Positions 21,001 to 27,000 of a stretch of DNA of 39,698 nt are shown here, piece after piece. The position numbers were made by a program. Origin of the DNA: a virus (lineage: Duplodnaviria > Heunggongvirae > Uroviricota > Caudoviricetes); IMG/VR virus record IMGVR_UViG_2522572021_000013. One strand, given 5' to 3'. Each line of letters starts with the position of its first letter. Positions within the stretch are counted from its first letter, which is position 1.

Positions 21001-24000
21001 AGACGACCTGCAGATATTGCCATTCCTCCCTCCTCATAACACCGTCGGACAACGCAAATCGTAAATCAGCACGGACACAGAAAACGGCAGCTCCCCCTGA
21101 ATCAGTTCTTCCCGCTCCGCAAGATCCGGATTCCGGTACAGCATCCCGGTCAGTCGCATGGCAGCCCCCTTCATCCGGGTTAATGCCTCGCCCGGGATCA
21201 GTTCACCGTCCTCACGAATCACCTTATCCCGGCTGCCCTGAATGTAGGCCAGCAGCACGGCGGTAGCCTGACGAACCTTGTCCATCAGCATGTCATCATC
21301 CGCGTCATGGTCGACACGCAGATGTGCCTTGATCTCTTCCAGTGTCAGTAATGCCGTCATTTTCCGCCTCCTGCATCCCGTCCACGTTTGGCAGCCAGGG
21401 TCCAGCCTGATGAATGAGCTTCTCCGGGTTTATCACCGGTCATACTGTTGCAGTGCCACAGCGAGCCCCCCCACGTCACCGTATCACCGGGGTGGTAGGT
21501 TTCACCGGCTCTGAACACACCGCGGTAGAGCATCACCGGCAGGGAAAATGTTTTTTCCGTACGCTGGCCACTGCTCTGCCGGACCACCACAGTGAACGAC
21601 CGTTCGCCGGTCATGCTGACGTCAATATCGGCCACCCCGTCAACCAGGCATTCCCATCCCCGCATCCCGTGCGTTTTTTCATACGCCCGCCAGAGTCCGC
21701 CCTGGTGTGTGGCATACGTGCCCCGGGGAAAGGATTTTTGATCGTCAATGGCGGGGATTATTTCCAGTGCCGTGGCATCACGCCCGTCCTGCGGAGCCGG
21801 AAGGGCATTCACCGCCTCCAGAACCGCCTGCTTCAGTACTTCCGGATCGTAATCACGACCGTCACTCGGAGCAGGGATATGGCTTACGGCCTCTTTCACC
21901 ATCTGCTCAAGCATCGGACGCACATCATCGGGGGTGATACTTTTGCCGTCCGCCGGTACCGGAATATTCGCAACCGCATCATTCACCGCCTGCTGCAGTA
22001 CTTCCGGATCATAATCACGACCATCACGCGGAACAGGAATATGGCTTACCGCCTCTTTCACCATCTGCTCAAGCATCGGACGCACATCATCGGGGGTAAT
22101 ACTTTTGCCGTCCGCCGGTACCGGAATATTCGCAACCGCATCATTCACCGCCTGCTGCAGTACTTCCGGATCGTAATCACGACCATCACGCGGAACAGGA
22201 ATATGGCTTACCGCCTCCTTCACCATCTGTTCAAGCATCGGACGCACATCATCGGGGGTAATACTTTTGCCGTCCGCCGGTACCGGAATATTCGCAACCG
22301 CATCATTCACCGCCTGCTGCAGTACATCCGGATCATAATCACGACCATCACGCGGTACCGGAATGGCCCCCACAGCATCATCCACCATCGCCTGCAGAAC
22401 CGGACGCACCTCATCCACCGTCACATGCTTCTGTAATACCGCCGACAGGGAAGTCAGTTTCTCTTCAAACGCTTGTGCCTGCGAGGCCATCTTCCCCTCA
22501 AATGTGCGCTGTAAATCCGCCAGCACCGTGGAGAATTCTTCTCCCAGTGCACGAATAATGGACAGTTCCCGTTCCGTCATTTTCGCAGTATCCCCCTCAA
22601 CATCGCTTTCACCGCACCATGCTCTGTTTCACTGATTGCCTTATTACCGTCAGATGCGCCGTCAGGCAGTTGGGCTGAAACTCTTTTCCCGGACGACGCA
22701 AACGGATCTTCACGGGCATCACGACGGGACAGCGCCTCCAGACTGTAGTTCTGCTGCTGAAGATACAGTGCATCACCGCCGGCAAGGGGCGGCAGGTTCT
22801 CACGTTTACGGGCCTCATTGGGCGTGAGAAGCGTATTTTTCACCGCATCCCCCAGCGTTTTCATGCGCCGTTCGCTGTCCATTCTCAGCAGCGTGGTGAC
22901 GTCAAACTCCGTACTCTCGTTTTCCCCCGTTTCCAGCGCCTCATCCAGTAACAGTTCAATGGACTCAATCAGCGTCTGCAGGCACTGGGAATAATACTGC
23001 TGCTCCAGCGCCTCCACGTTGTCACTGGAAGGTGGCTGGCCAACGCCAATCTTGTAGGCCGGGACACGGAACACCGAACAGACAATTTCAGCGGTCATCT
23101 TCAGTTGTTCCACCGTCTGCGCATCCACCGGTGAAAACGTCATGGGGTTGTATTTTGCCCCGTTGCTCAGAATGGCCGTTTTCCCCGCATTTTCGCCGGT
23201 ATACCCGCTGTCCCAGTTGCTCTTCAGTTTTTTCGCATTTTCTTCCGTAATACTGCCGGGGATCTCAATCACCCCGGACGGCCTGCCGCCATTTCTGAAA
23301 AAAGACGTCGAATTTTCCTGAATATGATGCCCCTGCGTGGCCGCCAGCCCGGCAGCATACACCGGCGGCAGCCCCACAAGCGGATGAAAAAAACAGTTAA
23401 ACCGGTCGTGGATCACTTCCCTGGCAGGCACCGTCACCGCCTCCGTGATCCCGCAGTTCCGGTCCGGTGTAATGCGATAGAACACCTCGCCGTCATCCGC
23501 CACCAGAGGTTCAACCCGGCTCCAGTCCAGAATACGCAGTTCTTTGATCTGCCCCCGGGAGTTACGGATTTTCAGCACCACCGTATTGCCGTGACGCAGT
23601 TTGGCGTTCAGCCACAGTTCAAAAAACTGGATACGATTCTGCTGTGCATTGGGACGACGACAGAGACGGGCAATATCCCCCTGCCGTTTTTCACGGCGGA
23701 TCCCCTGTGTATCCGTCTGCATCAGGCGCAGCCGCATTTTGGCGATATCCTGGGATATCAGCGAAATGCAAGAAAACACCGCATGAAAGGAGAGGACACT
23801 TTCCGGATCGGCTTTCACACCCTGCTGCCAGGCGCCGGCAAAGGGCTCAACCACCGCCTGAAACAGGCTGGTCCAGCCCACCTCTTTTACATCACGTCCT
23901 GATTTCTGGTTTTTTCGGGTTCGTCGCAAAAAGTTCCACATTCGCTATGCTCCGCATCACGTTTCTTTTTCTGACCTGCCGGACGTCGCACCGTGATGTA

Positions 24001-27000
24001 CTCCGCCTTTCCCAGGCGAACCAGCACCTCCGCACACGGCTGTGCGACATCACGGATATCCCCGGCCCGGCCATCATGCGTGCCCTGCAGATATCGGATC
24101 TTTGCCATAACCTGTTACGGGAGGCGCACGCCTCCCGTCCTCCTTATCAGACTCAGCCGCCGGACGCACTGCCGTAGTTCACTCCGGTGATCACCGCCAC
24201 CGCCGCGGTACGGCGACGACGCCAGTTGATCCAGCGCTCCGCACGGATGGCCACACTGCCTGTCTGGAACATGGAAACCAGCTCCACCGGCGACGGTGTG
24301 GTGCTGTCGCCGCCCGGCTCAGACTGCATTTCCAGTGACGCTTCACGGGACATATCCACTGCCACACCGCCGTCATCCGCCAGATAAATATCCGGTGCAT
24401 TCACCAGTACCAGCTGGTCACCCACGTACTGGGAGACAATCACCGGAAGCCCCTGAAAGGTCCCGCCCAGCAGGGTCATGTCCGGATATTCCTTCTGACC
24501 CAGCGCATTTTTACGCATGGACAGCGCCAGGGCATTCGTGCTGGACATCAGCCAGACAGCACCAGTGGGCTGCAGATTTGCCGTCACAAACTGGCCAAAC
24601 GCGGCCTCGGCATCCGCATCCGGGTTACCGGTTGATGCCGTGCCCTTCACATCATGGGTGATGGACGCCGGGGAGACATCTGCCACTGCAGCTTTTTTCG
24701 GGTCCACAAAGTCTGTGTCCAGACGCGCCACCACCGCTTCTGCCAGCGCATTACGGACCAGTGCATCAGCTGCCGGACTGGAAAAGCGGATCAGCTCTTC
24801 CGTCAGTACCGCAATGGCCGACACCTTCGCATGACTGAAGGTGATGGACTCAAAATCAAACTTCGTCAGGGGTCTGGCCTTACCCTCCCCCACCCAGCCG
24901 GCAGCACCACCGGACACCTGGGCATGCTCGCGGATATTGAACGGCACCAGACGAAGTGCAGGGATCCCGCCCTGACCAAATCGCCCGATAATGGTCTGCG
25001 GACGCAGGTAATCAATAAAGTCCTGCGCATATTCCTGATATTCAGACAGGCTGCCTGCCCACTGTGGGTCCGTGGTGGTCCCTGCCCCCACCGCCGATTT
25101 CAGGACATGATGCAGACGGCTGTCATCCGGATACTGACGACGGGCCACTTCCAGGGCTTCAGAGCGGACACCTTTAGCCGCGGCCAGTGATTTGGCAAAG
25201 CGGGCGAAACCAATCCCCTTCTCCAGTTTCTGCTCAACACGGATCACCGGCGCTGAAGCCACCGTGGCCACATTCCCGTTACCGGCCTGTTTCACCGGCT
25301 GTGCCGTGGCGGCCTTACCGGCTTCCAGTTCACGCAGACGCTTCAGGTGCGCATCCACCTGACGGATTTCCGCTGCGGTGTTGTCGTAGTGCTCTTCCTC
25401 TTCCACATCCAGTGTGCGGCCTTCCTCTGCGGCTTTGTTCATGATCTCCTCAAGGGAGGCTGCCAGCGCCGCACGCTTGTTTTCAAAACTTTTAATCTGT
25501 TCACCAGTATTCATTGCTGACTTTTCCTTATGAAAAGAGGTTATTGACTGTGCCGAAGCGCCGGCAGAAGATGCGATTTTCACCACCGGTCTCCGGTTGC
25601 CGGACGCGGCAGAAAACGGGCTGCCGAAAGATTTAATGGTCCGGATGGTGCATTCCGCATTCGCGGGCACGGTGACGGCAGACACCTCCATCAGCTCCCA
25701 GCGCAGAAAATGCAGTCCGCCTCCGTCCAGATAAGTGTATTCATGGGGCCGGAAGCCCACAGAAAGCCCCCTGACCAGCCCGGTCTTAATGGCAGCCCAG
25801 GCCTCATCCAGCCGGGCTGCCATCTGGGAGGGCATCCCCGGCTCCGGCTTCACCAGCATTGCCGTGATTTCCAGCCCTTCCCTGACCCGACGCACCGTAC
25901 ACTGGCCTACAGGGCGGGAATGGTCATGCTGCCAGAGAAACGGGATCGTACTGCCAAACTCCGCCCCCTCCGGCTCCAGGATGTCACCATCCCGATCCGG
26001 AGAAGGCGTTGACGCAATCCCGGTGATCACCCGTTCATCCTCACTGAAGGATTTCACCGTCAGCAGGGAACAGGCCCGTTTAAGAGTCACATCAGCCTCC
26101 TGAAAATAAAAAAACCGCCGCAGCGGTTCATGATGGTTACAGGGTGAGCAGGGTTATATGAAAAAAACCTCATACGCTTTCTTTTTCGGTTCCGGATTCA
26201 GGGACATCAGGGACACCGCATTGAAGAGCGCCATCAGCGGGTCAATTTTTCCCCGTCCGCTGGCCTGTTTGGTGATAAGAATGGCGTTACCTTTAGGCTC
26301 CACCCGGGCATTGCCAACGCACCAGGCCATCAGTGGCTGACCACCATGCACCAGCACTCCCTCAGCCAGTTTGCGCTCGGTGGTTTTGATGGCCCCGCCC
26401 AGCTTCCAGCCCTGGCTTATCCCCACCACACTCTCATCGGGGATCCCGGCTTCCGCCAGTGAATCCAGAATCTGCCCCACACCTGACGGGTCAATACCGA
26501 TATGATCCAGTAACTCAGCCTCATGAATACGACGCACATACTCCGCCACTTCCGCCGTGTCATCCCCGACCCGACGGACAATCGTCATGTCTCCACAGGC
26601 CACAAAATCCTGAAACCGGGATGCCTCACTCTTCCGTCTGACCACCGCGGTTTCATGCACCCAGGCATGGCCCCAGCCCAGCCATTCGCGGGTTTCCCTG
26701 TCACGGCCAGTCACGTACATTCCCAGCAGATCATCCAGGCCCCCGCCGTCAATCCCCACCGTCACCACATCAGCGCGCTGCAGGATATCGTCCAGGCTGA
26801 CGCGCCTGCCCTGCTGCTCCCAGAAATCCGCCCCTGCCCAGCGGTCAGAACGCAGGGCAAGACCAATTTCCACATTGGCGTGTTTTGACATGAAACCGCG
26901 GAAAGTCTCTTCCCCGGCTTCCCGGGCTTTACGATACTCCCGGTACAGAAAGGCCTCATCCACTGAATAGCCGAGATTCGGATTGACCATGGCGAGGTTT

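Follow-up and report, generated by a model that had tools for sequence, protein, structure and literature searches.

The viral DNA analyzed here (39,698 nucleotides, hereafter the window; IMG/VR record IMGVR_UViG_2522572021_000013, Caudoviricetes) carries on its minus strand a 645-codon open reading frame (ORF; 24153..26090, GTG start) in which a prohead protease and a major capsid domain are joined. This fused gene is transcribed ahead of the portal gene, since both genes are located on the minus strand. The locus raises the question of whether such a fusion is a regular gene, how unusual its position is and which protein products it gives rise to. Here, we found that a protease-capsid fusion ahead of the portal gene is already known, ordinary and very common. 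For its products, we propose a nested gene that would yield two chains: the complete 645-residue protein and a scaffold-coat protein initiated at codon 193, so that a minority of the coat subunits would carry the protease as a covalent passenger. We assign this reading a probability of about 0.55. As to the identity of the region, it very probably represents the head-assembly module of a lambdoid long-tailed prophage of the enterohemorrhagic Escherichia coli (EHEC) type, the lineage of which is found widely among Proteobacteria, with a fusion ORF that probably gives two chains.

Domain structure and distribution of the fused gene

When we compared the 645-residue product with domain collections, residues 48-153 matched the protease family PF04586 (Peptidase_S78) with 33.2 bits (cut-off 21) and residues 386-635 matched the capsid family PF05065 (Phage_capsid) with 54.2 bits (cut-off 24.2). 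The NCBIfam model TIGR01554 (major_cap_HK97) was recognized between residues 204 and 584 (80.3 bits, cut-off 27.5), and phrog_617, a 'major head protein' family, aligned with the product from end to end (E=2.8e-258). These domain matches, as well as those of the 454-residue portal product described below, are far beyond chance. The first-pass annotation, which had placed protease and capsid domains in one 645-codon ORF, was correct in this respect.

The S78 prohead serine protease domain occupies residues 1-155 (25626..26090). In an alignment with HK97 gp4, PAJU2 ORF003 and the protease of Burkholderia phage vB_SBP39, His55 (codon 25926-25928) and Ser110 (codon 25761-25763) fall on His65 and Ser114 of HK97 gp4, the catalytic residues of that enzyme, and both are invariant across 25 homologues. 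In a low-confidence structural model (predicted local distance difference test, pLDDT, of 60-78), the N-terminal domain found its top Foldseek matches among the proteases of Kaposi's sarcoma-associated herpesvirus, pseudorabies virus and human cytomegalovirus, with E-values of at least 0.011. A likeness to herpesvirus assemblins is expected for the S78 protease class.

The protease is followed by a variable linker (residues 156-192; 25515..25625), which is predicted to be disordered (pLDDT <35) and for which the alignment of homologues yields no consensus. Residues 195-261 are modeled as a helical hairpin (helices 195-223 and 229-261, pLDDT about 70-76). A search of the Protein Data Bank with the single protein sequence gave one weak match only, and a profile search performed better. 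With the family profile, residues 201-258 matched residues 7-64 of 9gyi_B (E=0.0013), a 385-residue chain named 'Major head protein', and residues 386-619 matched the solved major capsid protein 9d9w (E=2.3e-5). We take 9gyi_B to be HK97 gp5 and its residues 7-64 to be the scaffolding domain. The coiled coil would then correspond to the N-terminal delta domain of an HK97-type coat protein, and we propose that it is removed on maturation. From the N- to the C-terminus, the ORF encodes an S78 (HK97 gp4-type) protease with histidine and serine in their catalytic positions, a linker predicted to be disordered, a coiled-coil segment that matches the scaffold ('delta') domain and an HK97-family capsid domain.

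This architecture recurs in many relatives. A megablast search with the head module (21357-28375) returned 95 phage records, with 99.1% identity to PPompW prophages and about 96% identity to dozens of Shiga toxin (Stx) phages of the types Stx1a, Stx2a and Stx2c, to JLK-2012 and to others. In these relatives, the fused product is labelled 'putative major head protein/prohead proteinase', 'phage prohead protease' or 'major head protein Gp17 / head maturation protease'. The Stx/EHEC phages (PPompW, JLK-2012, YYZ-2008, 2851, 1717, BP-4795; Pankowvirus, Marienburgvirus) share the gene set and the gene order of the window, and from the small terminase gene (terS) to the 407-codon ORF behind the portal gene their DNA is 96-99% identical to it. 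They differ in allelic details only, namely in a junction of five or six G residues (G5/G6, see below), in the number of 162-bp repeats and in the GTG start. The E. coli cluster of the 645-residue protein comprises 9,916 member sequences, and versions of 644-648 residues with 73-77% identity are present in Salmonella, Enterobacter, Klebsiella, Serratia, Pantoea, Kosakonia and others. Uninterrupted fused ORFs encoding 644-690 residues were found in 29 homologues from three classes of Proteobacteria.

The best described distant relative is ORF003 of phage PAJU2 (UniProt P85500, 'capsid polyprotein'), which was annotated in 2009 as 'structural protein; prohead protease fused capsid protein'. Along its entire length it shares 49% identity with the 645-residue protein, and it shows the same sequence of protease, linker, coiled coil and capsid. 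Its neighbors are also those of the window, with the large terminase gene (terL) upstream and small ORFs, the portal gene and an ATGA-overlapping repeat protein gene after it. PAJU2 differs in its host, in the length of the fused protein (667 residues), in having two small ORFs before the portal gene instead of one and in a tail that is not of the lambda type. One ORF with both domains is likewise found in actinobacteriophages of Arthrobacter (AU, AN) and Microbacterium (EE), in which 'major capsid and protease fusion' or 'capsid and protease fusion' is a routine annotation category, and in Lactococcus phage Nocturne116 (ORF18). Few head modules are as common in E. coli prophages as that of the window, its annotation already exists, and the finding of the fusion itself adds nothing new.

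It might be argued that the fusion is a decay artefact, in which a defective prophage lost a stop codon or suffered a frameshift and was left with a non-working gene. The window does show other damage, since the tail gene J is split by a one-nucleotide deletion and insertion sequence (IS) elements lie nearby, and protease and capsid are encoded separately in vB_SBP39 and in Snodgrassella prophages. However, a decayed gene would not be expected to recur at 644-690 residues in 29 homologues over three proteobacterial classes or to account for 9,916 sequences in the E. coli cluster alone. Moreover, the fusion ORF is present in deposited phages classified by the International Committee on Taxonomy of Viruses (2851, YYZ-2008, JLK-2012 and PAJU2), and in PAJU2 its product is annotated as a structural protein of the virion. 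Phages 2851 and PAJU2 have been propagated as infective phages. Decay is hardly credible as an explanation and is already effectively refuted.

A predicted internal start at codon 193

Codon 193 of the 645-codon ORF is an ATG (25512-25514), and a Shine-Dalgarno (SD)-like AAGGA motif (25525-25529) lies just upstream of it inside the linker. When we inspected the 29 fused homologues, we found the homologous codon to be capable of initiation in each of them (27 ATG, one GTG, one TTG), and in each of them AAGGA, AGGAGG or GAGG precedes it by a few nucleotides. PAJU2 ORF003 also carries an internal AGGAGG with ATG. The amino acids encoded at the SD site differ among the homologues (KEK, KKGN, IKGK, QEGN, NKEH, QEV and so on). 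Quantification of the pairing energy with the anti-SD sequence placed the codon-193 site among the best 10% or so of in-frame codons (median; range 0.3-19%), and Fisher combination of these fractions gave a value of roughly 1e-7 when about 10 independent lineages were assumed. Codon choice points in the same direction: within six codons upstream of the site, glycine is encoded by GGA in 21 of 25 cases (84%), as compared with 9.7% gene-wide, and this preference for a rare codon is also seen in hosts with 62-65% GC. Finally, in vB_SBP39 and in the Snodgrassella prophages, where the capsid has a gene of its own, this gene begins at exactly the homologous methionine.

These data suggest that the coat protein is probably also made alone, from a nested gene (24153..25514) whose predicted 453-residue product would consist of the scaffold-like coiled coil and the capsid domain. 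The ORF would then probably give two products. As regards the first-pass annotation, its single ORF stands, whereas the single fused product that it implied probably does not, considering the conserved internal ribosome-binding site and start codon.

The competing explanation is that the 645-residue chain is the sole product, that each coat subunit cleaves itself and that the internal ATG and SD motif are a relic or a feature conserved at the protein level. In its favor, the reading frame is uninterrupted in all 29 fused homologues, and every homologue shows a strong SD motif ahead of the 5' start (in the window AGGAGG, 6 nucleotides upstream of the GTG). According to our own estimate, a T=7 procapsid would still have room for about 415 protease domains. 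The annotation of PAJU2 ORF003 also agrees with a single chain, and autocatalytic cleavage of this fusion was proposed (Uchiyama et al. 2009, as cited in PMC8306868). On the other hand, a relic would hardly have been kept in 29 of 29 homologues, high-GC hosts included, within a linker that is otherwise unconserved. A constraint on the protein does not account well for the two homologues without methionine at this codon, which use GTG and TTG, nor for the rise of the rare GGA glycine codon at the internal site. Nor does either explain why relatives with separate genes start the capsid exactly there. We consider the single-chain explanation unlikely, although it is the most serious of the competing ones.

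If the two-product reading is correct, the following sequence of events can be envisaged. The ORF would yield two in-frame chains, a 645-residue protease-scaffold-coat protein and a 453-residue scaffold-coat protein, which would form a procapsid together around the portal by means of the coat and scaffold parts that they have in common. Free proteases such as HK97 gp4 have a C-terminal tail for targeting; in the fused chain, the covalent link would take the place of such a tail and bring the protease into the shell. Subsequently, the protease would cut off both itself and the scaffold segments, about 300-350 residues would be left as the mature coat protein and the shell would expand. The order of the genes may contribute as well. 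A GC-rich hairpin of 9 bp (ACGGGAGGC-GUGC-GCCUCCCGU; 24117..24138, identified by folding) starts 15 nucleotides past the capsid stop codon, and placing the coat gene first and a hairpin behind it would favor a high ratio of coat to portal expression. A hairpin of differing sequence, often with a T-run, occupies the same post-capsid position in most of 21 relatives, HK97 included, and the HK97 record annotates its own as a putative terminator. A role of the window's hairpin as a strong terminator was rejected because it has no T-run and a modest z-score.

Several points weigh against the two-product reading and against parts of the architecture and expression scheme on which it draws. Where cleavage occurs, that two products are made and in what ratio are points that we infer from sequence. 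Many of the 29 fused homologues are related to each other, so that they represent about 10 independent lineages, and the SD motif overlaps lysine, glutamate and glycine codons, so that its conservation could be explained at the protein level. At the domain level, the stricter protease equivalog model TIGR01543 scored 44.8, which is under its cut-off of 59, and the NCBIfam 'fusion' model NF045541 (scaf_prot_MCP2) reached 53 bits at a cut-off of 525. The 645-residue protein is thus a fusion of the kind described by NF045541, yet outside that particular family. HK97 gp5 showed no BLASTP similarity to it. The AlphaFold model of the 645-residue protein is poor (mean pLDDT 43), and its capsid part stays below 50 because the alignment is shallow. 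A fold search with this model is of use for the protease domain at most. Since the capsid model failed, the HK97 fold is supported by profiles and not by structure. The hairpin behind the capsid gene has a z-score of only -0.6 to -2.3 and no T-run, and under Q-type antitermination it may not terminate transcription. Finally, the copy of the prophage in the window may be defective, considering its frameshifted J gene.

Nested genes of this general type are familiar from other capsid systems. In lambda as well as in HSV-1 (herpes simplex virus 1), a shorter and more abundant assembly protein shares the C-terminus of the protease and targets it into the procapsid. Lambda C/Nu3, HSV-1 UL26/UL26.5 and HFTV1 gp17/gp17.5 each have an in-frame internal start, as predicted for the ORF of the window. 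However, in these three systems the nested product is the scaffold alone, whereas in the window it would comprise scaffold and coat, a prediction that we base on sequence conservation. Precedent for nested protease/scaffold genes is given in bioRxiv 10.64898/2026.09.13.751334. In the literature we searched, internal initiation in protease-capsid fusions was not described; the same searches gave no direct account of the E. coli module, and what they returned were remarks on PAJU2 and Nocturne116, the actinophage annotations and the precedents for nested protease-scaffold genes.

If true, an internal start would explain how these phages set the dose of a protease that has neither a gene of its own nor a tail for targeting. 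The nested-gene principle known from lambda and the herpesviruses would then also apply to a gene for a coat protein, which should be of moderate interest for specialists in capsid assembly. From E. coli to the alpha- and beta-proteobacteria, the two-product reading would unite the nested-protease design of lambda and the herpesviruses with the scaffold-coat fusion of HK97, and we hold such a union to be slightly more probable than its opposite.

The portal gene and the 407-residue protein encoded behind it

Behind the fusion gene, the window contains two ORFs for which public records use the word portal. The first one (22577..23941, minus strand, ATG start) encodes 454 residues and matches positions 2-321 of the 321 positions of PF04860 (Phage_portal; E=1.4e-82, 277.9 bits, cut-off 39.1). 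It also scores 356 bits with TIGR01537 (portal_HK97), for which 112 bits are required, and it is recognized by phrog_12 and phrog_2271. Judged from these profiles, the 454-codon gene alone is a genuine HK97-family portal gene. Our domain search did not reassign this product, and together with the strand of both genes it confirms the first-pass claim that the fusion gene precedes the portal gene.

The second ORF (21357..22580, minus strand) encodes 407 residues. For this protein, we detected no portal domain in Pfam or NCBIfam, and no curated family was matched above threshold. The names of its PHROGs matches just repeat 'portal protein', as do the public records. The protein is mislabelled and is not a portal. 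Its N-terminal helix is followed by helix-loop repeats and a C-terminal beta domain, which is modeled with confidence (pLDDT >90). The repeats measure 27 residues in the model and 54 residues (162 bp) as tandem units, and the 162-bp tandem repeat within the gene (21823-22364) comprises 3.3 copies with 96% matches. The copy number varies among the relatives, and those with fewer or more copies encode products of about 350 to about 570 residues. A long antisense ORF on the plus strand (21414-22436) has probably arisen as a side effect of this repeat. In Foldseek, the C-terminal beta domain resembled chitin-binding domains and the tips of phage tail fibers, and a CBM_5_12 signature is present in 22 of 38 members of the family, so that we describe the domain as CBM5/12-like. 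With 5,665 representatives at 50% identity, the family is very large, and most of its members are standalone proteins whose genes directly follow those of portals.

The two genes overlap by the four nucleotides ATGA (22577-22580), which contain the stop codon of the portal gene and the start codon of the following ORF, and 11 nucleotides upstream of this overlap there is a run of five G residues (22592..22596). Among 74 related junctions, 45 have G5 and thus two ORFs, as in the window, whereas 29 have G6 and a single ORF of 860 residues, in several haplotypes. Phages 2851 and YYZ-2008 belong to the G6 type, and in them an 860-residue 'portal' is annotated. This variation suggests an alternative, according to which both ORFs together constitute the portal, so that the portal gene of the window would be broken by a frameshift. 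In addition to the G6 loci, the phrog_2271 profile, which is 859 positions long, is consistent with this idea, as is the existence of a second, independent portal fusion. This protein (P0225, 1237 residues) contains a full portal in residues 1-435 and a distant copy of the 407-residue protein (39% identity) at its C-terminus; the two partners were joined independently in this case.

However, the 454-residue protein alone covers the whole portal profile. Salmonella, Serratia and PAJU2, all of which are without the G5/G6 run of E. coli, have the two-ORF form and the ATGA overlap. The C-terminus of the portal protein (AM-x-RG-x-L-x-K) is conserved in Salmonella and Serratia as well, whereas PAJU2 shares the ATGA overlap only. 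Among 150 listed representatives of the 407-residue family, just 2 carry a portal part, and phage vB_SBP39 lacks the 407-codon gene altogether. A broken portal is therefore highly improbable. The two-ORF state of the pair is ancestral, and the G6 fusions look like homopolymer variants.

A programmed -1 frameshift at the G5 run was also considered, but a conserved mechanism of this kind is unlikely. The G run is absent in Salmonella and only G4 long in Serratia, and in both the ATGA overlap and the C-terminus of the portal are nevertheless retained. In addition, the frame of the 407-codon ORF is open for just 16 codons upstream.

The overlap of stop and start codon, which is common to E. coli, Salmonella, Serratia and PAJU2, suggests translational coupling of the two genes. 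Because its start overlaps the portal stop and because it has been fused to the portal twice independently, the 407-residue protein may be associated with the portal, and the arrangement suggests a copy number similar to that of the portal. For annotation, it follows that the 645-codon gene should be read as protease, scaffold and coat, that the 454-codon gene alone should be called portal and that the term should be dropped for the 407-residue protein. Only the prediction of an internal start and this mislabelled portal-adjacent protein are worth following.

Gene order, mosaic structure and other features of the window

All genes of the head module are on the minus strand and are transcribed in the order terS, terL, 645-codon ORF, 73-codon ORF, portal, 407-codon ORF, connectors and tail. 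The small terminase subunit (187 residues; 27812..28375) was identified by PF03592 (Terminase_2) and phrog_641 and the large subunit (553 residues; 26154..27815) by PF03354, PF20441 and phrog_9. Between terL and the fusion gene, a consensus scan detected a terminator-like hairpin with a T-run (26112..26129, minus strand), which sits inside what should be a single late operon. The 73-codon ORF (23887..24108) overlaps the portal start and is kept in every related IMG/VR locus. In relatives its product is labelled hypothetical, and it had no match in Pfam or NCBIfam and none to a curated family above threshold, PHROGs included. Small ORFs between the capsid and portal genes are also present in PAJU2 and vB_SBP39. 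Behind the 407-codon ORF, Pfam and PHROGs identified the head-tail adaptor Ad1 (21034-21360), the head closure protein Hc1 (20673-21023), a gp10-like protein (20230-20676) and the tail terminator (19889-20233), followed by the major tail protein with an Ig domain (ORF 19114-19959, the real start of which is probably later).

In 80 IMG/VR loci, the order terS-terL-fusion-orf73-portal-407-Ad1-Hc1 does not vary as far as the contig extends, and it is the same in Salmonella and Serratia prophages and in PAJU2. In a set of 34 loci from different species, which extends down to 34% identity and in which the alpha- and beta-proteobacteria lie at 34-50%, almost all loci keep this order where the contig reaches (the exceptions are L124 and L126). 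Burkholderia phage vB_SBP39 and the Snodgrassella prophages also have it, with protease and capsid as separate genes.

The HK97 record gives the order portal, protease and capsid, as the first-pass annotation had stated. HK97 gp3, gp4 and gp5 belong to the same families as their counterparts in the window, with the same catalytic residues, a scaffold fused to the coat and a hairpin behind the capsid gene, whereas the HK97 protease is encoded by a separate gene and has its own C-terminal tail. When we compared the individual proteins with those of HK97, we found 27% identity for the portal, 30% for the protease and no BLAST match for the capsid. For the neck and tail, the values were considerably higher, with 75% for the gp10-like protein, 65% for the major tail protein, 48% for the tail terminator and 43% for head closure. 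Downstream of the neck genes, the window contains the G/T chaperones, a 1080-residue tape measure protein and M, L, K, I, J and Lom; the corresponding Pfam families (Phage_TAC_1, Phage_tail_T, Tape_meas_lam_C, Phage_min_tail, Phage_tail_L, JAB+NlpC/P60, Lambda_tail_I, GpJ domains, Ail_Lom) occur in the order of a lambda-type tail. The earlier description of a mosaic prophage with a lambda-type tail and a non-lambda head is in line with these data. The prophage is a mosaic of a PAJU2-type head module and an HK97/lambda-type neck and tail, which is unremarkable for lambdoid phages. A lambda-like tail combined with a non-lambda head is not special, because HK97 itself has that pairing. P27-like phages, which had been suggested for synteny comparison, turned out to be unsuitable, since in phiP27 the genes follow the ordinary order of portal, protease and capsid and the tail is contractile. 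Genuine relatives are the long-tailed Stx/EHEC phages together with PAJU2 and Burkholderia phage vB_SBP39.

In the tail region, J is split into two overlapping ORFs on the minus strand (11574-12593 and 9064-11721) by an apparent one-nucleotide deletion in a G run at about 11667-11670 (...GKRLG | AADVDKW...). This copy of the prophage may be defective, or the missing base may be a sequencing error. Just upstream of terS, there is a gene for an HNH endonuclease (28664-29029, minus strand), which is likewise present in the Salmonella and Serratia relatives and in phiP27. An HNH gene beside terS is typical of HK97-like cos packaging modules.

A scan of the window for tRNA genes found none. Two stretches (1-6544 and 33166-39048) lie outside the virion module. 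At its left end (1-1701), the window contains a host histidine kinase of the LytS type, and two low-GC cargo ORFs without family matches (2654-3862 and 4514-5755) are followed by a gene for a protein with an OspG-like kinase domain (6053-6544). Toward the other end, there are a fragment of an IS110-family transposase (34916-35836) and orfA and orfB of an IS3-family element (37835-39048).

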